DNA of 64,000 nt, from positions 1 through 64,000 of IMG/VR virus record IMGVR_UViG_3300015371_000013. One strand, given 5' to 3'. Shown here piece after piece: positions 561 through 38,858 of the stretch; the stretch's first letter is position 1; the number at the start of each line of letters is the position of its first letter. The stretch comes from a virus. The position numbers were made by a program, and so were the translations under genes. The notes beneath the pieces were generated by a model that was given only the letters and a program-made list of their open reading frames with translations, was not told where the DNA came from and did no database searches.

Positions 561-3440
561 TCACTCAACACCTGACTTCAAGGTGGACATGGGAATGCCT
601 AGCGAACTTGAGATCTCAGCGTATGTAAAGCCTGATGACAACATCTGCTTAGCTCTAGCTGTTACAGCATCAGTCATCACAGGCCTCTCCCTAGGTGTGG
701 CTCTCCTACGAATGGCCTCTACATCAGTATACTTAAGGATGCTCTCCATCATCTCCTTAGAGATAGCTCCAGCTTGAATAGCATCCCATTGACGATCAGT
801 TAGACCTATACGATTCTTCTTTCCTCCTGCTCCAGTACGAAGTCGAGCTTCTTTAATCGCACTGTCTCTTACCTTCTTGAGCTCATCCTTCTCCATGTTA
901 GGATTAGCACTTCTTCTCTGTGCCACCATACGTCGGGCTACAGCCTGAGCCTGGCGTTCTAGAGGAGCATTCCTCTCAGCTACTCGAACAGCTGACTTTA
1001 GTTCTTCTACCTCTTTACTGTACACCTTCTTTGCCGACTTGGACATAGGGGTAAGCTTTACCCTTACCGCCTCTCTACGTGCCTCATTAGCCATAGCCTT
1101 AAGGCGATTAGAATGATCAGCGTAGTACTGTTCCTGTATGGTACCTCTACCCTTAGAGACTAGGCTATAAGCATTAGTTGTCTCAGCCAATCTCTCAGAC
1201 TTAAACCTAGCAGGCTCATCAGTTTTAACGTACCGCTTCTTACCCGTCTTAGGATCTACCTCAGCGACACGCTTACGTTCCCCAGTATCGACGTAAACCT
1301 TTCTACCTGTCTTTACATCGATGGTCCCTACTGAAAGCCGCTTTACTCCTGGCCCTGCCGGAGCATCCTTACGTTTAACCGGGTACGTCTCAGCCCCAGC
1401 TCTGGTAATCAGTGTAGCTGCACCACCAGGTAGACCGGTCTTAGGATTAACTCCTTGATACTTTCTCTTTAGTTCCAGAATTCCGTGATGTCTCTCGGAT
1501 GCCTTGTAGTCTAGATTATGTTTCTCAGAATCAATGACCACCATCGAATGACGTACAGCACGAGACAACTCTTCTCGAGTAGCACCCCTGAGAGTCATGT
1601 CAGAGATAAGGTTTGTAACCTTACCCATCTGCAAACCCTTTTGTTGTGGGGTAATAGAAGGGGTACCATCAGGATACTTCTTAGTTTTAGGTCCCAGAGG
1701 CACCTTGTATGACTGAGGATCAAACCCCTTCAAATTCTCCAAAGGCCGAGTAGACTCGATCTTACCCCTAGGATTCGGAATGACCACCACATGGTCGCCA
1801 TCGAAATCCGCACCCGACAAACGCTCTGCCACCTTGGGATGAATGGCTACGGCATCCGGAGCTCTTCCTCCTTTTCCGATACCGAAAAGCTTCTTAGCTT
1901 CTCGCGATCGATTGTTAACCGTCAACTGTGGAATCTCAAAGGTTCCCGCATGAGGAAACCGAATCAGAGCAACTCTCTCACCATCATGAAACGTAGGGGC
2001 AAAGATCTCGTGTGGTTTTACATGGTTAGAAGGAAGAAGGACTTTTGTTGCTTGCCGATCCATACTAGCTGCCGCAAGATGTACAGCAGCCGAATCAGTT
2101 TCGTCAGAGAAGGTTTCTAGAAGCTTTCTCTTAATGAGAGGATTAGTCAACGATTTGATTTCGTCGAATTCTTCTCTTCTTCGATCATGGGTAAAATCAA
2201 GCTGAGACTTGATCAACGCAGGAGACTGCTTAGACAACATCTGACTAGAGATCCGATTCGTCCAAGTATCCCAGTCACCCTCTTCAGTGAGAAGATTCAT
2301 CACTGATTTAGGTTTACCATCCTTACCCAGAATCTGTCCACCTTCTTTGATGACAGACCCGAAGGGAAGAGTCTTATCAACTTCTCCAGTTTCCTTATCC
2401 TTCTTGAGCGGCTTCATGGCGTCGAATTTGTTGCCCGTATTCGACTTATTGGTATTGAACTGAAGATCTATACCAGCAGGCAAATCGTCCTTATAGACAG
2501 CCATACCCTTCAAGAAGTGGGTGCCACCAACTGCAATTCGAACCTGAGCATAACGCGCCTTGCCAAGACTAACATCTTCCACACCCGGACGGACATAGAT
2601 AACGCCATCTGCATCAGCGCCACCATCTTCTTTGTATTTAACTCCTACTCGTTTGGGATCAATGTGAAGCGGGGGCTTAATCCCCATGTCTTGCCAGGTC
2701 TTACCACCATCCTCAGTTTTCTCAGCGATCAATCTAATGTTATCACGATTCGTCCAGGCTTGTTTCTGAGTAACCCCCGGCTTGACCAGCACCTTGTAGG
2801 TGGTCATCTCTCCGGTAGTAACTTGAGGAGCTTTGAAGGTATGGACACCATAACCCTCTTCCTTGAGCATAGAAAGAGCGGTATTGAATTTGTCCGGGCT
2901 GATACCAATTCGTGTATCGGGATTATCGCCAATAGGAAGATCGAGATGAACTTTTGATCCAACGTCAATGATATCCTTCTCTGCAACTTGCCGCTTAAGC
3001 ATATTCGCAGTTTGTTGAAGTTCATTCAGTCGTTCAAGGCGTCCAGGCTCAAGAAGTGAACGAACCGTAGATTCATTAATCTTCTTATCAGGAGACGACA
3101 TCTGATTAGCGATTGCCGTTGGGCCCATGCCTTTGTCGCGCAGACGCTGAGCTTCACGAATCTGATTCAAGGTTACCTCGGTAGAGGCCCGAGATGTCAT
3201 TGCTCGAATGTCTGCCGAAGTCATCTGATATTTCTTGATGACATTACCATCTTTATCCACAGGAGAATACGCCTTGGCGATCTCTGCTTCGGTCATCCCA
3301 TCGACCTTTTTGTGCTGCTCAACGATGTCTAGAAATGTCTTTGAGCGCTGAAGAGGATTCTGTCCCAAACCCCAGGGGTAACGACCCGATTTTCGGAGTA
3401 TTCCGTAGTGACTCAAATAGGTTTCTTCGTCCAAACGCAC
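561..3440 (-). CDS. Single-subunit double-psi beta-barrel DNA-dependent RNA polymerase with HTH domains
   Basis: RLSGADFDGDHV catalytic DxDGD motif, upstream RFPHA motif, HTH-like segments near both termini, 959 aa. Confidence 0.75.
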   Translation of the reverse strand: MRLDEETYLSHYGILRKSGRYPWGLGQNPLQRSKTFLDIVEQHKKVDGMTEAEIAKAYSPVDKDGNVIKKYQMTSADIRAMTSRASTEVTLNQIREAQRLRDKGMGPTAIANQMSSPDKKINESTVRSLLEPGRLERLNELQQTANMLKRQVAEKDIIDVGSKVHLDLPIGDNPDTRIGISPDKFNTALSMLKEEGYGVHTFKAPQVTTGEMTTYKVLVKPGVTQKQAWTNRDNIRLIAEKTEDGGKTWQDMGIKPPLHIDPKRVGVKYKEDGGADADGVIYVRPGVEDVSLGKARYAQVRIAVGGTHFLKGMAVYKDDLPAGIDLQFNTNKSNTGNKFDAMKPLKKDKETGEVDKTLPFGSVIKEGGQILGKDGKPKSVMNLLTEEGDWDTWTNRISSQMLSKQSPALIKSQLDFTHDRRREEFDEIKSLTNPLIKRKLLETFSDETDSAAVHLAAASMDRQATKVLLPSNHVKPHEIFAPTFHDGERVALIRFPHAGTFEIPQLTVNNRSREAKKLFGIGKGGRAPDAVAIHPKVAERLSGADFDGDHVVVIPNPRGKIESTRPLENLKGFDPQSYKVPLGPKTKKYPDGTPSITPQQKGLQMGKVTNLISDMTLRGATREELSRAVRHSMVVIDSEKHNLDYKASERHHGILELKRKYQGVNPKTGLPGGAATLITRAGAETYPVKRKDAPAGPGVKRLSVGTIDVKTGRKVYVDTGERKRVAEVDPKTGKKRYVKTDEPARFKSERLAETTNAYSLVSKGRGTIQEQYYADHSNRLKAMANEARREAVRVKLTPMSKSAKKVYSKEVEELKSAVRVAERNAPLERQAQAVARRMVAQRRSANPNMEKDELKKVRDSAIKEARLRTGAGGKKNRIGLTDRQWDAIQAGAISKEMMESILKYTDVEAIRRRATPRERPVMTDAVTARAKQMLSSGFTYAEISSSLGIPMSTLKSGVE

Positions 3441-13602: not shown

Positions 13603-14060
13603 TGCTGATCCATTTCGGCGTACTTACGTTCGAGAGCGTCCTCCTCAATGGTCACGTACATGGACTGGACGTAGGCCGTAATCCCGCTACGACCACCTTT
13701 CTCCCAAGGATAAGGCCGAACGATGAGGTCGACATTGACAATATCAGCCCAATCGAGGGTCTCCACCGTGTCCTCGGTGAGCGTGGTCTTACCCCGATCG
13801 GTGACCAAAGTGATCTTCGGAGGGCGACCTACGTCGTAGCGAACCTTGACCGGCAGCCAAGGGGTGGGGGTCTCTTCCTCATCCCGAGGGTCGAGAACCT
13901 TGACATTCCAACCGTCAGCGGCCATAGCCTCGGCAATATCCTCCGGAAGCACGACTCCGAAGTTCTTGGCTCCCTCCTGGTTGAAGGGGCCTCCTCTTCC
14001 GGTGAAATTACGGAAGATAAGACGAACACCTTCCATCACCACCGAATCATTGGCGGGCAT
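13599..14060 (-). CDS. ssb: Single-stranded DNA-binding protein
   Basis: RLIFRNFTG...KNFGVVL...LDWADIVNVDLIVRPYPW...GITAY, acidic tail; in replication module. Confidence 0.75.
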   Translation of the reverse strand: MPANDSVVMEGVRLIFRNFTGRGGPFNQEGAKNFGVVLPEDIAEAMAADGWNVKVLDPRDEEETPTPWLPVKVRYDVGRPPKITLVTDRGKTTLTEDTVETLDWADIVNVDLIVRPYPWEKGGRSGITAYVQSMYVTIEEDALERKYAEMDQQ

Positions 14061-23250: not shown

Positions 23251-23305
23251 CCTTGGTTGAGGTGAAAGAAAAAAGAGAGTCCGTGATGGACCCTCTTTAG
23301 AGGTA

Positions 23306-23467
23306 CTACTTGCCAGCGTCCTTCATGGCGCGTCTAGCGACTTCCTGCTTCCAGGCCGCCGAGTTGATGAGCTTGCTTGCGGCGCCGAGCAGTGCAGCTG
23401 CGACTCCGAGAGCAAGAATGGGATTCTCTTCGGCCTGTTCCTTCAGGTTGTGGATAAACTTGTCCAT
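23306..23467 (-). CDS. 53-aa single-pass membrane cassette protein
   Basis: RBS AGGAGG; promoter 23496-23519 and terminator 23266-23298. Confidence 0.7.
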   Translation of the reverse strand: MDKFIHNLKEQAEENPILALGVAAALLGAASKLINSAAWKQEVARRAMKDAGK

Positions 23468-23495
23468 GGATTCCTCCTGGATAGGGTAGCTTTTC

Positions 23496-23519
23496 ATTAT
23501 AGGAGGGGTTTTTCCCGCG
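23496..23519 (-). promoter_or_regulatory. Phage promoter element CGCG-N14-TATAAT
   Basis: Consensus match. Confidence 0.8.
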
Positions 23520-23532
23520 ATCTCACCCGGAC

Positions 23533-23633
23533 AAAAAAGAAAGCCTGTGCGAGAATGAACTCTAAGGTTACTCACAGGTGTCTATCGCATTATTTCTCCA
23601 AAGCCTTGGATCGGCGGGCAATAGCACTCTTTC
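23533..23633 (-). ncRNA. Promoter-driven ~100-nt three-way-junction RNA
   Basis: GAAAG/CUUUC closing stem then U6; arms GUGCUAUUGC/GCGAUAGACAC and CUGUG/CACAG; no RBS-led ORF. Confidence 0.7.
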
Positions 23634-28383: not shown

Positions 28384-28421
28384 AAAAGAAAAAGAGATTC
28401 CGAATCAACGGATCTCTCTTC
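28384..28421 (-). ncRNA. Minimal cassette: promoter followed directly by hairpin and U-run
   Basis: GAAGAGAGAUCCG-UUGAUU-CGGAAUCUCUUUUUCUUUU. Confidence 0.55.
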
Positions 28422-28450: not shown

Positions 28451-29613
28451 TCAGCGGTCGTTCTTCCGATGGATTTCGAGCCTCTCGCCAGGCTTGAATC
28501 GGCATCGCCCTAATTTTCCCTCCAAGGTGGTAAGGCCTATCTCACTGGGGGTAACCCATCTCACAGACACCACGTCGGTGACTGCGAAAACGACCTCCTC
28601 GGTTTCCTCATCGACAAATATGAGTTCGAAGGTCATCGAGACTTTCCGCGAAGAATGGCGGCGAGAGCCAGTAGTTTCTGAGCTTGGTCCTCGCATGACT
28701 GAGCAATCTGATCAGCGGTCATCGTCGCATCTCCCGGCAGAATATCCAGATGAGCCAGAGCCCCCCTGTGACAACTGTCAACATGACGTCGAACACAAAG
28801 GAAAAGAAGCCATAGCGCTTTCGCGGCTCTCCGAAGTAGACATGGCGAGAATATGTCTGATTGTCACGAAAGAACTCACGCATTGTCGTCACGCTCATTG
28901 TACTTGTTCTGGATCTCAATCAGCTTGGCCGACATGCTGTCGAGAATAACTTGATCGAACTCGCTGAGCTCGATACGATTATCATCCACGATTTGCAAAA
29001 GCCGATTGCGCTGTCTGATCGTCTCTTCGAGAGCGGTAGCCAGATCCTCTCGATGTTCAATTACGATATCAATGCTTTTGAGCAGTCGCTTGACCTGAAC
29101 TATCGATACAATGTTGGTGGCGAAGAGACCAGCAATGATGGCGTAAAAGTAAATATCACTATTGAGAAATTTACGCATCCCGCTTTATCCCCTTGGCTGT
29201 GGGGTGAAACTTTAAAGCGCGCCTCTCGGCGAGTTCTCGGGTGACGGCCCGGACTTTGACGGTTCGAGTCATCCCGTTCTCATACTCCACGGTGACGTGA
29301 TACAAGCGCTTCGACTTCTTGGTCTGCACGGCAGGCTCTTTCTGTTGAGGGTAAATATGACTTACGGAAGAAGATCTCTCAGAGCAGCGTAAGCTTCTCG
29401 TTGATTTGGAGTGAGCGAGAACTCAGCATACTCATTTGCGAGTTCTTTGATTTCCTGACGTTCTTCGGGGGTGAACTGTTCACGCAAAGTGCTCGCCATG
29501 CGACGAGCATCGTTGTGAATCGTCATGATCACTGTGTAATGGATGAGAGCTTTGTCTCGTGACTTCATCAGATTCCTTTCTGAGAAAAAAGAGAGAGAAG
29601 GGAATCTATCCAA
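28451..29613 (-). other. Run of small CDSs (28451..~28636, 28719..~28883 membrane, 28876..29178 membrane, ~29171..29329, 29362..~29568)
   Basis: Coupled small ORFs; the one ending at 28719 has LTVVTGGLWLIWIFCRE. Confidence 0.6.
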
Positions 29614-29664
29614 TTCAATGGCGTATTCCTTTGCAAGCCAACAGTCAGTTGGCTCTTCTCTCTC
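29585..29664 (-). ncRNA. Promoter-driven ~80-nt three-way-junction RNA
   Basis: Perfect 10-bp GAGAGAGAAG/CUUCUCUCUC then U6; hairpins AGCCAAC/GUUGGCU and GGAAU/AUUCC. Confidence 0.75.
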
Positions 29665-29688
29665 ACTATACGGCGTGTTTTCCCCGCG
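29665..29688 (-). promoter_or_regulatory. Phage promoter element CGCG-N14-TATAGT
   Basis: Consensus match. Confidence 0.8.
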
Positions 29689-29691
29689 TGA

Positions 29692-30072
29692 CTATGCGGT
29701 CACTACATCCGGCTTCCTGGCCACCCAGGTCGAGCTGATGAGATAGAGCCCAGCCAGGGTCGACAAGAACAGACCCCAACCCGGCTGAACCAGATCGTTG
29801 ACTCCCGCCTCACTGAGATGGAACCAGACATAGGCCACTTGAGACAGGACTACGAGACCGACGAAGATCGAGACGATCCTCATGTAGAGACCGGAGACGG
29901 CGGACGCGATGACGAGTCCGATGCCTGTGAATATGGCGACCGCCACCTCGGTGAAGTTCATCGGCCCGGCGCTGATGACTCCGAGAAAGCTGATCCAGGG
30001 GCCAAGGGCACCAAAGATAAGCGCGATAGCGCCAATGGTGAGCGCGGTGGGACGGTTGAGCTTGGTAGTCAT
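29692..30072 (-). CDS. Four-TM membrane protein
   Basis: Four hydrophobic helices, GPW and PGWGL motifs; AAGGAG RBS before MTTK. Confidence 0.7.
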   Translation of the reverse strand: MTTKLNRPTALTIGAIALIFGALGPWISFLGVISAGPMNFTEVAVAIFTGIGLVIASAVSGLYMRIVSIFVGLVVLSQVAYVWFHLSEAGVNDLVQPGWGLFLSTLAGLYLISSTWVARKPDVVTA

Positions 30073-30097
30073 GATGACTCCTTTATGGATTGTGGAT

Positions 30098-30185
30098 AAA
30101 AAAGAGAGACCCATCTCCTCCTGCTGTCGTAGCATGGCTTCGTTGGCAGGTCGCGTAGCATAGCTTCGCTGTGGAGATAGGTCTC
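30098..30185 (-). ncRNA. ~85-nt RNA with two copies of hairpin CGAAGC(U/C)AUGCUACG
   Basis: Stem GAGACCUAUCUCC/GGAGAUGGGUCUC then U-run; repeats at 30128-42 and 30154-68. Confidence 0.7.
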
Positions 30186-30195
30186 AAAATATAAA

Positions 30196-30314
30196 GAAAC
30201 CCCAGCACATTGCTCTACCTGGGCGCAATGCACTAGATAGAGTTAGGTGGGCACTCGAGGTACTTTTTACACCGTAGCCTGAGCGCAATGCATCAGACTA
30301 ACTGCTGGGGTTTC
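30196..30314 (-). ncRNA. Promoter-driven ~120-nt RNA with duplicated UGCAUUGCGC(U/C)CAGG
   Basis: Perfect 12-bp terminal stem 30196-207/30303-314; repeats 30218-32 and 30278-92. Confidence 0.75.
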
Positions 30315-30338
30315 ATTATACCACGGGTTTTCTACGCG
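30315..30338 (-). promoter_or_regulatory. Phage promoter element CGCG-N14-TATAAT
   Basis: Consensus match; overlaps stop codon of upstream gene. Confidence 0.8.
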
Positions 30339-30739
30339 AATACGGAATTCGGCAAAGCCGCAAACCGTTCTTGTAACCCGTGAATATCCTGAGCAATCTC
30401 ACGAGCGTTTTTGCCAACAACGGCTGCAGCTCGATTGATGCTCGGATAAGGTTCGCCAGTCAGCTTGTCCAAAACAGGAATTGGCTCACGACAAGCTCTT
30501 TTTACGAGGGCTATCTGGGTGATCTTGGGCTTCCAGATAATCAACGCCGTATTCTTTGCTTTCTGCTGTATCTCAAGCGGCAAACCGTTGAGACGAAGTA
30601 GAATGGTGGTCGCAGTGACAGAAGAGCCCACCGCGAGACATCCTGCGCCGACGAGATACACCTTCTTGTTCTCCTGCAGATGCTGCTTAACCCGCTCGAT
30701 CTTGGTACGATCGTCCTGCTTTTCTCCTTCCTGACTCAT
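30332..30739 (-). CDS. Membrane-anchored protein with C-terminal NUMOD1-like HTH (paralog of 34325..34705)
   Basis: KQHL..NKKVYLVGAGCL; PVLDKLTGEPYPSINRAA. Confidence 0.65.
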   Translation of the reverse strand: MSQEGEKQDDRTKIERVKQHLQENKKVYLVGAGCLAVGSSVTATTILLRLNGLPLEIQQKAKNTALIIWKPKITQIALVKRACREPIPVLDKLTGEPYPSINRAAAVVGKNAREIAQDIHGLQERFAALPNSVFA

Positions 30740-30922
30740 AGTCCCTTCCTTGGGTTGAACACTGATTTACAAATATGAGCGATGGTGACAGCGGTGATGA
30801 TCTTTATCACTGCGTCCGTCGTCTTGTCAATCACTCGTTCCACGTCTTCGGTGGGGATGTTGATGTTGATGTTTACATCATCTTCGATCTTGTGCTTCAC
30901 GACTCTCCTTGTCGCCCGAGGG

Positions 30923-30984
30923 AAAAAATGAAAGAGATCACAATTTCGAATATGCGATTACAGGAGCCTTTCTCCTTCTCTTTC
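30923..30984 (-). ncRNA. Promoter-driven ~60-nt three-way-junction RNA
   Basis: GAAAGAG/CUCUUUC stem then A-U6; hairpins AGGAG/CUCCU and AUCGCA/UGUGAU. Confidence 0.65.
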
Positions 30985-31008
30985 ATTATAGGGGCGGTTT
31001 TTCACGCG
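30985..31008 (-). promoter_or_regulatory. Phage promoter element CGCG-N14-TATAAT
   Basis: Consensus match. Confidence 0.8.
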
Positions 31009-31010
31009 AA

Positions 31011-31373
31011 TTATTCACCCTCAATATCTGCTTTGATATCCGGCAATTCCTTCGGGCGTTCTCGTCTTTCTGAGGTGACGATCACGGTTATGGTGGGCAA
31101 TTCCCACCGGCGTTCGGCCAGAGGATCGATCTGCATCTGGCGAAGATCCTCAGGCGTTAAAGAGAACTCGTATACTTCAGGCGTGATGACCTTGTCTCTG
31201 TCGGCCAGCACCGAGTTGAACTTCATCGCCTTGTAGGTAACCGCCGATCCAACCATGGCTCCAAATATCCCGGTGGCGGCGTAAGGATGATCGGTAGCGA
31301 ATCTGATCGAACGAGACAGCAGAAGCAACCAGTTTATCTGGTTCATCTGCTCTTTCATCTGATCTTGCTCCAT
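31011..31373 (-). CDS. Single-pass membrane protein (paralog of 36936..37184)
   Basis: TM followed by LTPEDL....DP....W motif. Confidence 0.65.
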   Translation of the reverse strand: MEQDQMKEQMNQINWLLLLSRSIRFATDHPYAATGIFGAMVGSAVTYKAMKFNSVLADRDKVITPEVYEFSLTPEDLRQMQIDPLAERRWELPTITVIVTSERRERPKELPDIKADIEGE

Positions 31374-31994
31374 CTAGCCAACCTCCTTGCTGGCCTGTAT
31401 CGAAGCGCTTACACCAATGATTCTGCAGAGAAGATTGATCGAATCGTGAGAATGCAGCGGCTCGTAATGCGGATTGAGCTTGTCTTGCTTTACCAGATCA
31501 ACGATGCCCTGAATATCCGTACGCCATTGAGAAGACGTATAGTAATCGGCCAGCCCGCGATCCGTACGCTTAAGCGTGTCAAGGAACTTATCCTCGGCAA
31601 TCTCCTTAATACGATTTGCCCATTCCGAGGTAATTTCCATAGTCGCCCCTGTGCCCTTCTGAACGAAGGGCGAATTGTCGACGTACTGCATAGCGTCGTT
31701 GTAGATTCGAGCAACCACGATCTCCTTGAGGGCATCCTGACCATAGATCAGGACAGCATAACCCAAGGGCAGATTCCAGATCTTCTCCGGACGACCATGA
31801 TGAACGCCCTGAGTGAGGCAGTTGTAGCCCCACTCGATTTCCTTCTGAGACTTCTGAGGACCCTTTACCTTGATGAACTTCACCATATTCTCAGCCTCGT
31901 ATTCCGAGACATCAAGTTCTTTGGCGATTTCACTGATAGAACGGTCTTCGCCTATCATCTGACGAGTTCGAGCTAGTTTCTCTTGGGTGTTCAT
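31374..31994 (-). CDS. N-terminal HTH protein
   Basis: RSISEIAKELDVS; AGAGGAG RBS. Confidence 0.6.
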   Translation of the reverse strand: MNTQEKLARTRQMIGEDRSISEIAKELDVSEYEAENMVKFIKVKGPQKSQKEIEWGYNCLTQGVHHGRPEKIWNLPLGYAVLIYGQDALKEIVVARIYNDAMQYVDNSPFVQKGTGATMEITSEWANRIKEIAEDKFLDTLKRTDRGLADYYTSSQWRTDIQGIVDLVKQDKLNPHYEPLHSHDSINLLCRIIGVSASIQASKEVG

Positions 31995-32099
31995 TACTCT
32001 CCTCTATACGCTTGATCTTTTGCTCCCAGAATGTCCAGTCCCGCCACCGCTGTTCTAGCAAATATAGCCGTTCTGGAGTCAACCACGGAGCAATCAACT

Positions 32100-32569
32100 T
32101 CATTGATCTCCAAGTCCGGTATCGCGCAGAATTTTTCGCGAGATTTCCTTCGGATCAGTCAACCCTTGCCATTCTGTTCCTTCGCGGATGGCAAACAGGA
32201 CGTCAATCACGGCCAGATTGTATCCGACAAACTTAGCCTGATCCTCCGGAGAAATCTCTAGGTCGCCAGGCACAGGCTCAGCAATCTGCATGAAAGTATC
32301 TTGAAGCTCTTTGAGTCGAGCTTTTTCGGTTTCGGTGATCATTGCTCTCCTAAATATAGTGATTAATCGTCGATAACCAGAGGGTCAAACCATCGACCAT
32401 CTAGATCATGACGAAACCCTGCCTCAAGCATACGTTGTTCGATAATCTCCGGATGCTCGGCCTCCATGTGCCGCACCTCTTCGTGCGTATTGTTGGCAAC
32501 TGCTCCACAATATGGGCAATGCCTCACACAATAAGGTCCGGAGCTCATGGGGTAATCCTCGTCATACAC
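32100..32569 (-). other. Two small CDSs (32100..32342; 32363..~32548 with CxxC/HxxxxH zinc finger)
   Basis: RBS; CPYC...HM..EH. Confidence 0.55.
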
Positions 32570-33021
32570 AGACTGATTCCACTCTGGGTACTCATGTAGC
32601 GCGCATCAGGCCAGATTCCCTTGCGATGAAGATCCAGCCGGTCGGCGTCCCAACAGGTGGCGATAGTGGGATTGATCGCTCTTTGACCAGAGCTATGCTC
32701 CACACAGGCCTCGAACAGTAGTTCTATTTGCTCATCGAAAATATAGCGATGGAGATGCTCTTGCGTCTTGTAGAAGCGTTCCCACAATCGATACCCTCGA
32801 TTTCCATGATCAGGATCTTTACCATCGTTTACCCGCATGGAGTCGTGAAATAAAGCGTACAACGCCACAACTTCCATGTCGGCGCCGGTTTCATACCCGT
32901 TTAGCATCTGAGCGTTCTGCCAGACCCTAAACCAATGGTCAAGACCATGGAGTCGACTCTGGAGAACGTTCAGGGTTATAGACTCGCCCAAGACAAAGGG
33001 AACGCAATGACTGGCGAGCAT
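32545..33021 (-). CDS. HD-domain phosphohydrolase
   Basis: HG..HW.RV, ALFHD, H, CWDADRLD. Confidence 0.85.
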   Translation of the reverse strand: MLASHCVPFVLGESITLNVLQSRLHGLDHWFRVWQNAQMLNGYETGADMEVVALYALFHDSMRVNDGKDPDHGNRGYRLWERFYKTQEHLHRYIFDEQIELLFEACVEHSSGQRAINPTIATCWDADRLDLHRKGIWPDARYMSTQSGISLCMTRITP

Positions 33022-33047
33022 GGTTACTCCTGCGGGTTGGCCGTTGA

Positions 33048-33320
33048 TTATAAACTTTCCTTTGCTTTCTTGCGCTTTCGTCTCTTGTAGGCACGATCCA
33101 CGGTTCGTCTAGCGCAGATATCGCTACAGTACTGTGCATCGTTTCGAGGCTTTCTTGTTTTCGAGAGAGGCTCTTGGAATAGAAATTCCTTTTGACAGGT
33201 TTCGTCAGCACATCGCTTGATCTCGACATCAAGTAAAGTCAAGATCGCATCTGTGAGAGTGCTGGTTTGAGTATAGGAAAGGGCAGTCTGAACTACTACG
33301 TCGGGTACATCTTGGTTCAT
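33048..33320 (-). CDS. CGNR-like zinc-finger protein
   Basis: CADETC..EF...AQYCSDIC.RR, basic tail. Confidence 0.6.
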   Translation of the reverse strand: MNQDVPDVVVQTALSYTQTSTLTDAILTLLDVEIKRCADETCQKEFLFQEPLSKTRKPRNDAQYCSDICARRTVDRAYKRRKRKKAKESL

Positions 33321-33872
33321 CACGACTGCAAATATGCGATGTCGCGAGCCTGCTTGAGATCGCGAGCCTGCTCGATGGTCAGACCAAGAAGCTCGGTCTT
33401 GGTGAAGCTCAGCTCGTCGCTGAACCACGGGAAGACAAACTTCTCAGAGCCGTCTTCCATAGTGGCGATGGCCTCCTTGTCACCGTAGCGGTGATTGGAG
33501 TCTTGAAAGATTACTGACTTGATGCGCATAACTCTCCTAGTTTGGGTTGCCGAACAGTTCTTCCAGACGTGTAGCCAGATACTCCTGTCGAACTTCGTGA
33601 TGAACGTCTTTCAACTCTTCAAGAATATCGTGAGCAATCTGCTGATACTCCTGGCTGCTCGTAGTCTCGACGGGGAACCAGCGGTTAAGCTTCGGGTAAG
33701 GCCCTTCGCTTCTAAGGGCGTTTTCCCGCTTGAGTCGTCCGAGCATGGTGGTGATCTGGAGTGGCGGGCCCTCGAAAGAAATCCCAGCAATGATCTCAGA
33801 TCGAGCGGCTCCAGGATTGGCACGGACATATTCTATGATTTGATGTGTAAGAGTGTTGTTGGTTTGTGACAC
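33320..33872 (-). other. Hypothetical CDS (33320..33529) and winged-HTH CDS (33537..33872)
   Basis: RBS; QIIEYVRANPG..RSEI...LGRLKR pattern. Confidence 0.55.
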
Positions 33873-33937
33873 AAAGTCTCTCAGGTTGTGGGGTCTCAGA
33901 AAAAATGAGAACCCACGAATGGATTCTCATTGAAATA

Positions 33938-34144
33938 CTACGACTTGTTGAGCTTGGCGGTCTCGAGGTTGAGCTTGGCGGTCTCGAGCTGCATCTGGTT
34001 CACCTTGAGGCCTGCGTACACGGACGCGCCGGTCAGAGCCACGGGAATGACGATCCACGCGGTCATGATGGCGGCATCCTTGATGCGCTGCTTCTTGGTG
34101 GGCTTGGGCGGCTCGACGACCTTGGGGGTCTCGGGCTCGGACAT
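33938..34144 (-). CDS. Single-pass membrane cassette protein
   Basis: AAGGAG RBS, TM, LETAKLN repeat; ORF-track extension runs through the upstream RNA. Confidence 0.7.
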   Translation of the reverse strand: MSEPETPKVVEPPKPTKKQRIKDAAIMTAWIVIPVALTGASVYAGLKVNQMQLETAKLNLETAKLNKS

Positions 34145-34193
34145 GCAACACTCCTTTTGTAGTGGTTTCATTATGAACTGTGAAATATCCGCG

Positions 34194-34298
34194 AAAGAAA
34201 AGAGAGAGCCACCTACCAACGACTTATAGAAGTTGGGATCCGACCCCCTTAAAGGGGATCTCGTCAAGGCGACTTAGAGAAGCCTAGATGACTCTCTC
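34194..34298 (-). ncRNA. Promoter-driven ~100-nt four-way-junction RNA with duplicated CUUCU(C/A)UAAGUCG
   Basis: 14-bp terminal stem with two G-U pairs; three hairpins, the outer two sharing the motif. Confidence 0.78.
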
Positions 34299-34324
34299 AC
34301 TATAAAGCGTGAATATGGCGCGAA

Positions 34325-34705
34325 TTATATGGTGATACGTTCGAAGTGCAACCCATTCGCATGCGGGTATTTACCGTTCAGATGCTGTGAAAGGTTAGTT
34401 TCCGAGATGCCCTTCGCCAAAGCGGCCTCTGCTTGGCTGCTCCACTTCTCCAGAGTTTCGAGACATCGTACTGGATTAGCCGGGTAATTGCGCTGGTTCA
34501 AATACTTGATGACCACGTCGACATTCTTTGACTTATTGACTATCAGACCAATGTTGTCAGTACCATTGAACGTCTGAATTACATTGGGGCTTGACACCCC
34601 GCGCAGCAAATATCCCGCGGTAAGACATCCTGCACCAACCAAGTAAACCTTCTTGTTGTCCTTCAAATGCTGCTTGATCTTCTGATAACGCGTAGACTCT
34701 TCCAT
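34325..34705 (-). CDS. Membrane-anchored protein with C-terminal NUMOD1-like HTH
   Basis: KIKQHLKDNKKVYLVGAGCL; PVRCLETLEKWSSQAEAA...SQHLNGK...GLHF. Confidence 0.7.
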   Translation of the reverse strand: MEESTRYQKIKQHLKDNKKVYLVGAGCLTAGYLLRGVSSPNVIQTFNGTDNIGLIVNKSKNVDVVIKYLNQRNYPANPVRCLETLEKWSSQAEAALAKGISETNLSQHLNGKYPHANGLHFERITI

Positions 34706-34760
34706 GATTTCCTTTAGTTCGTTTGAATAAAAAAGGAAAGCCCCTTTTCGGGGCTCGCCT

Positions 34761-34922
34761 TTAGGCGTAGATCTGAACGACGCCGGGGACGAGGGTGGTC
34801 TCAGCCAGCTTGGCCTGGGACTTGGTGATCATTCGCTCGTACTTGTACACCGCACGGATAGTGCGGAGAACGTTGACGTTTGCGTTGATCTCGGTCTTAA
34901 CGGCCTTGATGGGATGGAACAT
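34761..34922 (-). CDS. 53-aa cassette protein (not in ORF track)
   Basis: AAGGAG RBS; MFHPIKAVKTE...QIYA between promoter and terminator. Confidence 0.7.
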   Translation of the reverse strand: MFHPIKAVKTEINANVNVLRTIRAVYKYERMITKSQAKLAETTLVPGVVQIYA

Positions 34923-35009
34923 AATGGTCTCCTTTGGTGGTTTAGGTCTTCATTATGTACCATGTTTTTCACGCGAAAAAGGAAAGCCCGTGCGGACTCT
35001 CCTTAGAAA

Positions 35010-35207
35010 TTACTTCACCTGGTTGGAAGCTGCCTTGAGGGTTTCGAGGACGATCCTCTTGTCGAGCATCTTGTACGAGATGAATGAGTTGGCGACTGCG
35101 GTAGCACAGTAGATGGAAAAGCATCCGAGTACTAGCTTTTGGCTGCCAGTCATCATCATGATACGAGACCTCCTAAGAGGCTCACGGGTTTCGTTTGACT
35201 CGGGCAT
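35010..35207 (-). CDS. Cassette membrane protein
   Basis: Between promoter 35235 and terminator; an alternative start near 35159 has AGGAGG. Confidence 0.65.
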   Translation of the reverse strand: MPESNETREPLRRSRIMMMTGSQKLVLGCFSIYCATAVANSFISYKMLDKRIVLETLKAASNQVK

Positions 35208-35295
35208 AACTCTCCTAGAGTTGATAGTGGTTTCATTATAGCCTGTGAAAAGTATGCGAAAAACTGAAAGCCCGGGTTAGGGGCTCTCAGTTTGA

Positions 35296-35433
35296 TTAGC
35301 TGCTCTTCTTCGAAAGCAGATGATCGGCGATGACGATTGAACTCGTTGCCAGCGTAAGCCACGCACTGGCCCGAGTGGCCCGATGGGCGTGGGGGGCGGT
35401 GACGTGGATGACGGCGGCGAGCTTGTTCTTCAT
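35296..35433 (-). CDS. 45-aa cassette protein (not in ORF track)
   Basis: AAGGAG RBS; MKNKLAAV...SKKSS. Confidence 0.7.
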   Translation of the reverse strand: MKNKLAAVIHVTAPHAHRATRASAWLTLATSSIVIADHLLSKKSS

Positions 35434-35531
35434 GGCAAATCTCCTTCTGATAAGAGGGTTTACTTTTCATTAGAAGCTATGAAATATCCGCGAAAAACCT
35501 AGAGACCGGGTTAGGGTCTCAGGGTTTTGAA

Positions 35532-35723
35532 CTAGAACTTACGGGCGATGATGACTTGGGAGTTCGGCTCGAGTGCGGCCAGAGCATCGACATGTTCCTG
35601 GATGCGGCGCTGACGCTCCTGCTCTTCCCCAGCTGCAGCGAATGCAGTGAGGGTGAACAGAGCGGCGCCACCCAGGGCCTTGCCGGTGTTGCGGGCGTAC
35701 TTCTTGGCGGTTTCCTTGGTCAT
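35532..35723 (-). CDS. Cassette membrane/secreted protein
   Basis: RBS, hydrophobic segment. Confidence 0.7.
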   Translation of the reverse strand: MTKETAKKYARNTGKALGGAALFTLTAFAAAGEEQERQRRIQEHVDALAALEPNSQVIIARKF

Positions 35724-35823
35724 GGTTTTTCTCCTTTTGAGTTTGATTTAGTTCTCATTATAAGACATGAAAATTACGCGAAAAAAGAAAGAAAGAGAAT
35801 CCGATGCGGACTCCCTTCTTGAT

Positions 35824-35955
35824 TTAGACCTGCGAGGTGTACTGGTGACCAACGTCTTGTAGACTGGCGTACACGTCCATTGCAAATATGCTTCCCATCG
35901 CGAGGATGGTGAGCAGGATTACAACGAACATGAGGCGTCCGAGGGACAGGGTCAT
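35824..35955 (-). CDS. 43-aa membrane cassette protein (not in ORF track)
   Basis: AAGGAG RBS; MTLSLGRLMFVVILLTILAMG... Confidence 0.7.
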   Translation of the reverse strand: MTLSLGRLMFVVILLTILAMGSIFAMDVYASLQDVGHQYTSQV

Positions 35956-36043
35956 GAGGTATCTCCTTGTTTAGGTTTGGTTTCATTATACTCCATGAAA
36001 TATGCGCGAAAAAGGAAAGCCCGTGCGGACTCTCCTGTTGAGG

Positions 36044-36262
36044 TTACTTCTTGGGGTTAATGTTCTCGACAGCGCGCCTGGCGGAAGTGAGAGCGATCTG
36101 CTCCTCGAGGTACATGATGCGGGCATTGACCTTGTTGGTGTGGCTCTCGCTAGCGGCAGGGCTAGCGGAAAGCTGCCAACGAGTCATTTCGGCATTCAGG
36201 TACTCGAGGATGGCATCAAGCTTCTCAACTTCTGTAATAGGCTTACGGGTCTTGAAAAACAT
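36044..36262 (-). CDS. Cassette protein
   Basis: RBS, own promoter and terminator. Confidence 0.7.
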   Translation of the reverse strand: MFFKTRKPITEVEKLDAILEYLNAEMTRWQLSASPAASESHTNKVNARIMYLEEQIALTSARRAVENINPKK

Positions 36263-36343
36263 GTTGACTCCTTGATAGTGGTTTCACTATAATCCATGAA
36301 ATATGCGCGAAAAAGGAAAGCCTGGGTAGGCTCTCCTGTGAAA

Positions 36344-36520
36344 CTAATTGTTCTGCTGGGAAACGTCGGCTTCGAACTTGCGCTTATTTCGGCGGTCCAG
36401 ATAGTTGACGAATCCGATACCCACGACGATCAGAGTAGCGTTGAGGGCAACGTACTGAACGGGGTGACTACGAATCCAGTCGTACTGGACCTCCTGAGAC
36501 TTGCGGTAAAGCTTGAACAT
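36344..36520 (-). CDS. Cassette membrane protein
   Basis: GGAG RBS, WIRSHPVQY followed by TM. Confidence 0.7.
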   Translation of the reverse strand: MFKLYRKSQEVQYDWIRSHPVQYVALNATLIVVGIGFVNYLDRRNKRKFEADVSQQNN

Positions 36521-36614
36521 TGGAGTTCTCCAGTGTAGAGGTTTGGTTTCATTATAACCCATGAAATATGCGCGTAAAAAAAGAGAAGCCGGGTTAGGAC
36601 TCCTCTCTAACGAT

Positions 36615-36848
36615 CTAATCGATGGGAATCAGGTCGTAGTGAAATCGCGGAAAGCCGATACGTCTCATCTGGAAACGATAACGACCGGGCGGCACGGTGC
36701 GGAAATCTCCGTCCTGACACATGTTCATGAAAGTTCCGTGAAGAATCTTTTCTTTTTGTGTCGGGTCAGAGGTGACATAGGCAACGTGGGCCACATCGTC
36801 GTCGTTTATAGTGACGAGAATATAGGGTTTTGACGATTTTCGAAACAT
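36615..36848 (-). CDS. Cassette protein
   Basis: GAAAGGA RBS, own promoter and terminator. Confidence 0.7.
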   Translation of the reverse strand: MFRKSSKPYILVTINDDDVAHVAYVTSDPTQKEKILHGTFMNMCQDGDFRTVPPGRYRFQMRRIGFPRFHYDLIPID

Positions 36849-36935
36849 GATGTTCCTTTCGGGTAGGTGTCATTATAAGCTGTGAAATGTTCGCGAAAAA
36901 AGAAAGTCCCGGATTGAGACTCTCTTTTTGACTAC

Positions 36936-37184
36936 TTACACGACAGGACTCGCTTCGTTGAGGACGAAGATGTTGAGGCGATCAGAAGTCCACTTGAGAG
37001 CATCTCCTGGATTGTCCAGCAGCTTCTGGAGATTCTCAGGGCTGACCGAGAGGAACAGATCGCTGGTGTTGTTGGACATCAGGCGATGTGCTCCTACGGC
37101 TCCTGCAATAACTCCAGCACCGTAGACGATGACAGTGTGATGCTTCCGATAGAACTTCTTAGCACGTTGGTACTTGTCGTTCAC
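36936..37184 (-). CDS. Cassette membrane protein
   Basis: GTG start after AAGGAG; TM followed by VSPENL...LDNP. Confidence 0.7.
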   Translation of the reverse strand: MNDKYQRAKKFYRKHHTVIVYGAGVIAGAVGAHRLMSNNTSDLFLSVSPENLQKLLDNPGDALKWTSDRLNIFVLNEASPVV

Positions 37185-37278
37185 GAAATACTCCTTTGAG
37201 TAGTAGGTTGTCACTATACCCCATGAAATATGTGCGAAGACAAAAAGAGAAGCCGCGTTAGGGCTCCTCTCTTTGAGA

Positions 37279-37500
37279 CTACTTCACCATGTAGATGGCG
37301 TAGCCGTGTCCAACGACTTTGACACTCATCTCGAACAGGTCATCGTGGTCAATGATCCTGTGGTTTGTGGTATCGGTGGGGCCATCGATCTCGAAGACGA
37401 ACCAGGTATGTTCTTCTTCAATCTCGGGACGGACGCCACCGTTCAGAACCTGGATCAAATCCAGAGTGTTCTGTTCGATGGGAATGGCGTATGTGGACAC
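37279..37500 (-). CDS. Cassette protein
   Basis: GTG start after AGGAGG. Confidence 0.7.
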   Translation of the reverse strand: MSTYAIPIEQNTLDLIQVLNGGVRPEIEEEHTWFVFEIDGPTDTTNHRIIDHDDLFEMSVKVVGHGYAIYMVK

Positions 37501-37695
37501 GAAAATCCTCCTTTGGTTAGGTGTGGTTTCACTATAAACCATGAAATATACGCGCCAGTATTTACAGTAAATGCGAGTCAGTATCTGGACTTTTCACCAA
37601 AATTACCCCCCGGGAATTTTTTGATAGTGAAAAAAAGAGAGGCTGTGTTTTTCACACGAACCTCTCTCTTCGATAACTTATTTCAGGATTTGGCG

Positions 37696-38046
37696 TTACG
37701 ATCGAGGCTTCATCACGAAGCCAAGCGCGGATCTGCTTCTGATCACATGTTCGCGCTCGTAGCGGGCCAACCAGAGGATCCCGAAGATATTGGCGGCGAC
37801 GACAAGCACGGTGTCCGGGCTGATCTGCTTGCTGAATCCGAATCGTCGTTCATCCGCCAGTTCCTGCTCTTGTTTTTTCAGTTTGGCGGTCTGTTCGACT
37901 TCTTCGATCTTCAGTTTGTGCAGCTCGGAAATATGCTTGACAATCGATGCGTATTCCTCGGAGGTCTTCGCATGGTTTGGCAGCTCTTTGAGGGCGGCTT
38001 GGATCTCAGCATCGAGCTTGGTCTCGATTTGAGTCTTGATAAACAA
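37696..38046 (-). CDS. Conserved membrane protein heading the early region
   Basis: SEEY, ISPDT..VVAANIFGIL..ARYE...VI.S.ALGFV motif. Confidence 0.75.
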   Translation of the reverse strand: MFIKTQIETKLDAEIQAALKELPNHAKTSEEYASIVKHISELHKLKIEEVEQTAKLKKQEQELADERRFGFSKQISPDTVLVVAANIFGILWLARYEREHVIRSRSALGFVMKPRS

Positions 38047-38181
38047 TTACTCTCCTTTGATAGGGTTGTCATTATAGGCTGTGTATCAGCCGCGAAACCC
38101 TATAACCCAGGTAGCCAGGCAATGAGGAAGATGGTCACCACCGCAAATATGCCGATGATGCAGATGACCAAGATCCCTAAC

Positions 38182-38499
38182 CTATTCACGTACCACCTTG
38201 AACGTCACTTCGTCTTTCTTCTCAAGCAATTCTGGATCGTCGTTGAGTTCTAAAGAGAATATCTTCTTATCCCCTACCTCTTTTACAACAAGGTCTCCTC
38301 CTGTAGCATCCTTTTGGTATTTGCTGGAGGACAACTGCAAAAGCACTCCGATAAAGGTATCCACCGCTACAATGGTTCCCACGACTTGTTCCGCCGCCGG
38401 TAGGCCCCAAATCCCTGCCAAGGTGAAATATAACGTTCCCACCGCTGGGAGGGCAATCTGAGCCAGAAACTTGAGTCGATCATAAAGAGTATTGCTCAT
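38182..38499 (-). CDS. Holin (Dp-1-like)
   Basis: [45 protein letters not shown]. Confidence 0.85.
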
Positions 38500-38858
38500 T
38501 CCTTGAAACATACGTAGAGGGTCTCCTGGCCTCCTGGGTGATTGATGATGAGACGACCAAATACAAATCCGGCCGGACAAGTAGTACCCCCAGGTTCACC
38601 CTTAGGCCCCGCTGGACCCGGCTCGCCTTTCTCGCCTTTCTCGCCTTTCTCTCCTTTCTCTCCTTGTTCGCCTTTGGGACCCGGTGGCCCGGCTGGGCCT
38701 GGTGGTCCTGGCTCCCCATTTTTGATAGTGATGGTCCTTGTCGGCCCTTCATCGGTTTGGGATACAGCTTGGCTGGCGAAAAATCCTGCGGCCCCTGTGA
38801 GTGCCAGTCCGCTGGCGAGCATTAACGCTGTGATTCGGCTACTCATCAGCCTCTCCAT
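38496..38858 (-). CDS. Membrane-anchored collagen-repeat protein
   Basis: N-terminal TM, Gly-X-Y run, C-terminal CP.GF...C. Confidence 0.75.

Follow-up and report, generated by a model that had tools for sequence, protein, structure and literature searches.

A predicted actinophage small RNA with a duplicated hairpin on a closed clamp, located behind an HTH protein gene

Described systems and the position of this locus

The CsrB/RsmZ RNAs have their own promoter and terminator, present one short motif on several hairpins with unrelated stems, and bind protein multivalently. In lambdoid phages, phage-specific protein-hairpin pairs (N-boxB in nut, and Q-qut/pR'-6S-tR') diverge among relatives, and a regulator gene lies beside the promoter of a short terminated transcript ahead of promoterless genes. 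Type III toxin-antitoxin systems (ToxI/ToxN) place a repeated RNA unit beside a protein gene with a terminator between the two, and the repeats bind the protein stoichiometrically. To our knowledge, phage-encoded small RNAs are still little charted, and almost nothing is known of them in actinophages. For the promoter described below there is a direct precedent, as a 43-50 bp motif containing TATAAT has been reported in the cluster DJ phages Vardy and Conley (PMC9671010, PMC10868162).

The window (the whole stretch of 64,000 nucleotides that was analysed) is part of an 80.5-kb IMG/VR record rated complete by CheckV and originating from rhizosphere and soil metagenomes. The virus is a soil actinophage. 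Every gene of the phage (G000) is carried by the minus strand, and its primase-polymerase and a 959-aa two-barrel RNA-polymerase-like protein are ~60% and ~48% identical, respectively, to their counterparts in cluster DJ Gordonia phages (Deejayvirinae). The 959-aa protein (561-3440, minus strand) matches PHROG 4291, labelled 'RNA-dependent RNA polymerase', and has homologues in ~250 phage records (Arthrobacter, Gordonia, Streptomyces, Lactococcus P118, Faecalibacterium FP_oengus), usually under an HTH-protein annotation. The primase-polymerase co-occurs with it, as does the promoter motif in the cases that were checked, and it is present in all carriers examined.

The element considered here is a predicted small RNA from the cassette at 34298-34202, called RNA A, which lies behind a gene (p126) for a helix-turn-helix (HTH) protein. 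RNA A resembles CsrB/RsmZ in presenting one short motif on hairpins with unrelated stems, and, with its own predicted promoter and putative terminator, would also share the multivalent binding of a protein, but its box (CUUCUMUAAGUCG) is without GGA, and only two to three sites are presented, on a clamp-closed junction; moreover, in the class to which RNA A is assigned below, even close phages have hypervariable motifs, and the candidate partner is not of the CsrA family but an HTH-fold protein encoded by the adjacent gene. As no Rfam CsrB/Rsm match was obtained either, a CsrB/RsmZ sponge was rejected. The comparison with the lambdoid modules holds for the proposed protein-hairpin pairing, for the divergence between relatives and for the placing of a candidate regulator gene beside the promoter of a short transcript with a putative terminator. 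In contrast to N, which is an arginine-rich peptide, and to Q, which binds promoter DNA, the protein here joins a hydrophobic helix to a NUMOD-like HTH; the hairpins of RNA A lie inside the loop of the putative terminator, and a promoter follows RNA A. A repeat RNA beside a protein gene recalls ToxI/ToxN, but relative to that system the gene order is reversed, no ToxN/AbiEii-like endoribonuclease fold is present, and the repeats are hairpins on a scaffold, not processed tandem units. The promoter belongs to the same family as the cluster DJ motif (TCGC-N14/15-TATAAT-GAGA) and occurs in the same central small-gene array, but in the cluster DJ reports the motif is described only before genes, and neither RNA cassettes nor a link to an HTH gene is mentioned. 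Within the literature searched, neither RNA-carrying cassettes nor their association with the protein gene appear to have been reported, the promoter itself being already known.

Other identities were also considered. ARAGORN found no tRNA or tmRNA gene in the window, and a tRNA or tmRNA was rejected on geometry (a clamp of 14 bp relative to a 7-bp acceptor, with arm loops of 11 and 3-5 nt). Rfam 15 gave no hit at gathering score in the window, none at E <= 10 in 34100-34420 and none in 16 related loci, and blastn of the locus against GenBank phages gave no match. A phi29 pRNA (wrong phage type, no packaging context), a Y RNA/YrlA (no Rfam match), a retron ncRNA (no reverse transcriptase nearby) and a CRISPR-repeat mimic (no resemblance by eye) were likewise rejected.

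Fold and promoter of RNA A

An initial annotation of this DNA had described 34194-34322 as a minus-strand cloverleaf RNA. The locus was resolved into the following features, given in the direction of transcription.

34325..34705, minus strand: p126 gene, 126 aa, with an N-terminal hydrophobic helix and a C-terminal NUMOD-like HTH; phrog_27818
34299..34323, minus strand: RNA A promoter, with TCGCG, a 14-nt spacer and the -10-like box TATAGT at 34304-34299
34285..34298, minus strand: clamp 5' strand, GAGAGAGUCAUCUA; the first base after the -10 box is the clamp start
34268..34284, minus strand: arm 1, a GGC/GCC stem with UUCUCUAAGUC (box copy 1, 34270-34282)
34242..34260, minus strand: middle arm, GAUCCCC-UUUAA-GGGGGUC, without a box
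34216..34236, minus strand: arm 3, a CCAAC/GUUGG stem with UUCUAUAAGUC (box copy 2, 34220-34232)
34202..34215, minus strand: clamp 3' strand, UAGGUGGCUCUCUC, with two U-G wobbles against the 5' strand
34194..34201, minus strand: U-run, UUUUCUUU, directly 3' of the clamp; putative terminator tail that merges into the next promoter
34163..34196, minus strand: next promoter (nhmmer E 1.3e-9), preceding the 68-aa gene
33938-34144, minus strand: predicted gene for a 68-aa single-pass membrane protein; homologous promoter and gene in the relative G002

RNA A (34298-34202, minus strand) was predicted by RNAfold to form a four-way junction, in which a 14-bp clamp containing two G-U pairs encloses three arms (-45.8 kcal/mol, z = -3.3), and none of 200 dinucleotide shuffles folded as well. 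The cloverleaf proposed in the initial annotation, with arms GGC..GCC, GAUCCCC-UUUAA-GGGGGUC and CCAAC..GUUGG, was reproduced as both the minimum free energy (MFE) and the centroid structure. The 14-bp stem likewise reads as had been claimed, and the argument that its G-U pairs fix the minus strand fits the fold of the plus strand, in which the clamp is reduced to 7 bp. Of the span given earlier, the folded part stood, but 34299-34322 belongs to the promoter and lies outside the fold, and the U-run takes up 34194-34201.

The 13-nt box CUUCU(C/A)UAAGUCG occurs in exactly two copies in the window, the two that had been noted in the RNA, where 0.17 matches were expected with one mismatch allowed and at least two were obtained in none of 100 shuffles. 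No third copy with at most one mismatch was found on the same strand of the whole 80.5-kb genome. The copies are identical at 12 of 13 bases, the stems on which they are mounted (GGC/GCC and CCAAC/GUUGG) share no bases, and both copies form the same hairpin (outer stem, U-U/U-C internal loop, 2-bp inner stem and 3-nt loop). The earlier reading of the region as a structured minus-strand RNA element rather than coding sequence is supported. The open reading frame 33938..34267, already suspected of being a misreading, is an artefactual upstream extension of the 68-aa gene, the real start of which is the ATG at 34144, preceded by AAAGGAG and a promoter of its own; the G002 homologue is arranged likewise.

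RNA A is a singleton in sequence. Motif-pair scans for homologues in IMG/VR and JGI metagenome contigs returned only unrelated tandem or coding repeats, and a covariance model of RNA A searched against 426 kb of related phage DNA matched only itself, so that its own structure is without cross-species covariation. For RNA A itself the evidence for a structured RNA is internal, namely the box on two unrelated stems and the G-U fit to a single strand. No RNA-seq runs carrying the RNA A sequence were found, and in four DNA runs covering 29000-38500 there was no usable variation at 34194-34322 among the matches listed.

The promoter motif (TCGC(G/A), a fixed spacer and a TATAAT-like box followed by G/A) is located on the coding strand in intergenic positions. 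With an HMM built from seven copies, 16 minus-strand sites and no others were identified in this genome, and two related IMG/VR records gave 18 and 10 same-strand sites. A regular expression matched the minus strand 22 times and the plus strand not at all. The RNA A promoter was matched by nhmmer at 34323-34297 with an E of 1.9 and is the weakest copy by HMM score, but it has the spacing of the strong copies; it is one of the 22 regular-expression sites and is spaced like the other 21, by which it was classed as a cassette promoter, and it ends immediately before the clamp start at 34298. At 15 of the 22 sites an RBS and the start codon of a small gene follow within ~10-25 nt, and then a plain terminator hairpin. 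Six sites are followed by a clamp-closed RNA instead of a gene, while the remaining one, at 74734, is weak and probably false.

Cassettes were called clamp-closed when no RBS or start codon lay within ~40 nt and a helix joined the first bases past the -10 box with the bases before a U-run; in RNA A this helix is 14 bp long and begins at base 1, and the U-run occupies 34201-34194. In all six cassettes the bases right after the -10 box pair with those right before the U-run, with one to three hairpins between them. The G that follows the -10 box is located at 34298, 30984, 30314, 29664, 28421 and 23633, and the helices measure 14, 8, 12, 10, 10 and 7 bp. The same design was found in the relatives G001, G002, G005 and L152-L154 and in the cultured Gordonia phage Kerry, and since a terminator precedes the promoter in G001 and G002, the units there stand alone. 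Of the six, the four RBS-less, promoter-driven cassettes other than those of RNA A and of the paralogous module described below (29588-29672, 30930-30984, 28389-28421 and ~23270-23633, all minus strand) have a helix extending from the -10 box to the U-run, and three of them precede promoterless genes and look like attenuator-type leaders.

In the six cassettes and in relatives, the clamp begins at the first base past the -10-like box, with sequences that differ and covary with the 3' strand. If a host sigma factor uses TATAGT as a normal -10 element, transcription would start 6-8 nt inside the clamp, leaving only an 8-bp stem set back from the U-run. Conceivably, transcription begins exceptionally near the box, should the promoter be read by the polymerase that the phage itself encodes; nothing fixing the start site was found in the literature on promoters of YonO-type polymerases. 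Alternatively, the full clamp may form mainly in transcripts that read through from upstream, which are to be expected given that p126 is without a terminator of its own.

The RNA and the HTH gene across actinophages

The TAA of p126 (34327-34325) abuts the TCGCG of the RNA A promoter. The gene has an RBS but no cassette promoter, begins 33 nt behind a terminator (34756-34738), and has no terminator other than the putative one formed by the RNA A clamp. The paralogous p135 gene and Kerry gene 54 are likewise located behind a terminator-like structure. Being promoterless behind terminators, the HTH genes seem to depend on terminator read-through. The Pfam family I-HmuI_NUMOD-like matched 12 of 27 p126-family members (best E 6.5e-6). 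In an AlphaFold (AF2) model of p126 the C-terminal domain reached pLDDT values of 78-96, and the long N-terminal helix, with hydrophobic residues 18-38, was of low confidence; some depositors label the homologues as membrane proteins. The structures closest to the C-terminal domain in Foldseek were I-HmuI (1u3e), sCTP-23166 (a small DNA-binding protein) and the I-TevI DNA-binding domain (1i3j).

A second such module is present in this phage.

30098..30739, minus strand: paralogous module, comprising the p135 gene (30332-30739), a promoter, RNA B1 and RNA B2
30196-30314, minus strand: RNA B1, closed by a 12-bp clamp; two different stems bear UGCAUUGCGC, and the middle arm is unique
30098-30184, minus strand: RNA B2, with a 13-bp clamp and two CGAAGCYAUGCUACG hairpins

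The hairpins of RNA B2 (CG-A-AGC-YAU-GCU-A-CG) contain an A-A mismatch, and the hairpin type of RNA B1, with an AUUGC loop, recurs in Conley and Perkunas.

Searches with phmmer and tblastn identified p126 homologues in the metagenomic relative L152, 24 Gordonia DJ records, Rhodococcus phage ReqiPepy6 and the Arthrobacter phages Qui and Paella. Metagenomes encode homologues that are 60-82% identical (P0002-P0015), and the contigs of these should carry true RNA A homologues; a search of IMG/VR for related loci gave no relative, whether p126 or its aligned homologues served as the query. Sixteen p126-family loci were examined, two in G000 and one each in L152, Kerry and 12 other cultured Gordonia, Rhodococcus and Arthrobacter phages. 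In all 16, the stop codon overlaps the promoter, and ~90-370 nt of unannotated sequence follow that contain one to three clamp-closed domains with two to three repeated hairpins. The display of one loop on different stems, which the initial annotation had taken as a sign of selection, recurs both in the second RNA of this phage (RNA B1) and behind every homologue of the upstream gene examined in other phages. In our estimate, which is a judgement and not a formal test, an RNA behind every family member in at least six independent lineages is not due to chance, given that about a quarter of cassettes carry RNAs. Located directly 3' of a p126-family gene and carrying two box copies on different stems within one clamp, RNA A can be placed, on position and architecture but not on sequence, in a previously undescribed class of RNAs in actinophages. 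The promoter, the set of six cassettes and the tie to the upstream HTH gene had not figured in the initial annotation.

Covariation was assessed in an alignment of eight three-arm RNAs (model R1; Captrips, Artorias, Perkunas, Pherobrine, Rickmore, Petito, Odesza and ReqiPepy6). In this subfamily 96% of cells were paired, relative to 78% in shuffles and 32-48% with slid partners, and compensatory changes were found in 16 of 33 pairs; evidence for RNA-level structure in the class is thus strong, as judged from these comparisons. The R1 RNAs are like RNA A in lying behind the HTH gene and in having a clamp with three arms, a repeated inner hairpin and a U-run, but there is no detectable sequence homology between them, and RNA A carries boxes on arms 1 and 3 only. 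Searched against the window, the R1 covariance model gave no hit with default filters and, with filters off, a non-significant one of 9.0 bits (E 0.4) at RNA A, on the plus (wrong) strand.

Within one three-arm RNA the inner hairpin is identical on all three arms, and among phages it varies (loop types UUAUA, UUAUG, GUUUG, CCUAU and UGAUAAA), a non-canonical C-A or A-A pair usually being retained at the same hairpin position. In ReqiPepy6 the differences among the three boxes are compensatory, which argues for selection on an RNA hairpin and not on a DNA word. Captrips and Artorias are 93-100% identical across 1.7 kb save for one ~240-nt patch at 58-87% (L162 ~945-1183), which spans exactly the HTH-domain coding region and the RNA; in this patch Artorias groups with Perkunas and has the same box. 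The boxes are confined to the RNA, with no other occurrence in four genomes. Which type of RNA domain adjoins the gene follows the HTH subfamily, with Kerry, Odesza and ReqiPepy6 on one side and Captrips, Artorias, Perkunas, Rickmore, Pherobrine and Petito on the other. The HTH domain and the RNA lie within ~250 bp, however, so that their joint divergence may reflect linkage in a recombined patch, not co-adaptation. In addition, ReqiPepy6, Odesza, Perkunas and Conley have two to three RNA domains of differing box types and one HTH homologue each, so that a strict pairing of one protein with one box cannot apply to all of the domains. In ReqiPepy6 (L166 1086-1380, the gp065-gp066 spacer) three tandem RNA domains (one of Kerry type, one with GCCAUUGGGY boxes and one with CCUUUAUGAGG boxes) accompany a single HTH gene, and Odesza has two such domains; both contain orphan domains without a matching HTH subfamily in the genome.

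Proposed function, rival explanations and annotation

We tentatively favour, as an explanation somewhat short of probable, that RNA A is a small early RNA with paired hairpins recognised by a specific factor, for which the p126 protein encoded upstream is the leading candidate. The gene would specify an early phage RNA of ~100-105 nt, its transcription being predicted from the repeated early promoter. The clamp, three pre-folded arms and U-run may double as an intrinsic terminator that ends both the RNA's own transcript and p126 read-through, in which case RNA A would also be the 3' end of the p126 message; a consensus scan for terminators did not call this one, its 'loop' being a three-arm junction of 69 nt. 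The two identical hairpins could be sites for two copies of one factor, the p126 HTH protein being the likeliest candidate. Protein and RNA would then form a phage-specific pair, in which the RNA titrates the protein, assembles or organises it, or feeds back on it; alternatively within the pair, the p126 protein may modulate termination at the clamp. Against this explanation stands the fold of the partner, a dsDNA-binding HTH, and we know of no RNA binding by a NUMOD-like HTH domain. A more specific version, which we regard as speculative and rather doubtful, is a fast-diverging protein-RNA pair in which a homing-endonuclease-type DNA-binding domain has been recruited to read RNA hairpins, two or three at once, for self-recognition or in competition during co-infection, with the orphan domains as decoys for a rival's protein. 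If an HTH domain does read RNA hairpins, a homing-endonuclease DNA-binding module would have been put to an unexpected purpose.

An element acting mainly in cis, as a branched intrinsic terminator or attenuator that ends p126 transcription and insulates the cassettes, with the hairpins as folding aids or antiterminator sites, appears unlikely. It would account for the U-run directly after the clamp in every cassette, for a p126 gene and a family of HTH genes placed, respectively, without another terminator and without promoters behind terminators, and for the promoterless RBS and gene after B2 and C of G000, in L152-L154, at Kerry 15642 and at G002 5338; by analogy with lambda pR'-6S-tR'/Q or N/boxB, read-through of the clamp might control the downstream gene where no promoter follows. 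Ordinary cassettes of the array, however, end in simple hairpins of 5-12 bp, so that 100 nt of covarying arms with duplicated boxes would be unneeded, the full promoter after RNA A (E 1.3e-9) makes the next gene independent of read-through, and hypervariable boxes argue for specific recognition over mere folding. That same hypervariability bears on a trans-acting decoy or regulator of some other target (a host RNA-binding protein, a defence nuclease, the HTH protein of a co-infecting phage or a base-paired mRNA), which we consider quite unlikely: boxes that differ among close relatives infecting the same Gordonia strain are hard to square with a conserved host target. A base-paired target CGACUUA(G/U)AGAAG had been suggested at the outset, but the search in the phage gave no match better than chance, with 40 matches at up to three mismatches (29 +/- 6 expected) and, at up to one mismatch, none on the transcript strand and only the box's own complement; nor was any similarity to Rfam families, tRNA or tmRNA found. 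Sponge RNAs are nevertheless known to display one hairpin multivalently (CsrB-, Racr- and ToxI-like logic), the extra RNA domains of Odesza and ReqiPepy6 without a matching HTH subfamily would suit a decoy, and abundant ncRNAs of unknown function are expressed by other actinophages (PMC10986025).

The boxes might instead act as DNA, as direct-repeat operators or centromere- or iteron-like sites for the NUMOD-HTH protein, the fold being a by-product. We judge this improbable, although the partner domain is a sequence-specific dsDNA-binding fold, the sites adjoin the gene as in many repressor-operator, ParB-parS and Rep-iteron pairs, and the boxes recur nowhere else in their genomes. Against it, the stems of scaffold and clamp show covariation in which G-U pairs fit only the sense strand, the box changes in ReqiPepy6 keep the hairpin but alter the DNA word, and the box spacing is irregular and out of helical phase (25-26, ~30, 50 and 60 nt). 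A chance fold or a decaying remnant, such as a duplicated piece of terminator with no present function, would explain why RNA A is a sequence singleton with the weakest promoter copy by HMM score, but is very improbable in view of the fold and motif statistics and of the same layout behind the paralogous gene and all 16 homologues examined.

The recognisable unit consists of a promoter, a clamp, two to three identical hairpins and a U-run behind one protein family. Rfam does not contain it, and dozens of cultured SEA-PHAGES genomes leave it unannotated, some of them with small ORFs or wrong starts mis-called at these places. Carriers such as Kerry, Captrips, Artorias and ReqiPepy6 grow on laboratory strains of Gordonia, Rhodococcus and Arthrobacter, and there are near-isogenic pairs distinguished by nothing but the HTH domain and the boxes, which makes the protein-RNA hypothesis directly testable in existing phages.

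The 44-aa ORF annotated as gene 76 of Arthrobacter phage Qui (L160 1159-1293), in which the peptide VKKIALTIT is repeated, lies within an RNA cassette of 160 nt with a 17-bp clamp and is probably not a gene. The annotated GTG starts of Captrips gene 55 (L162 1177) and Artorias gene 56 (L163 1177) lie inside the 3' strand of the RNA clamp, and the real start looks to be an ATG 15 codons downstream that matches the homologues in Kerry and Perkunas. Kerry (L159) also contains, at 13756-14024 between genes 51 and 52, an unannotated element of ~250 nt with a 27-bp perfect closing stem, which is located behind a terminator and has no match to the promoter motif.
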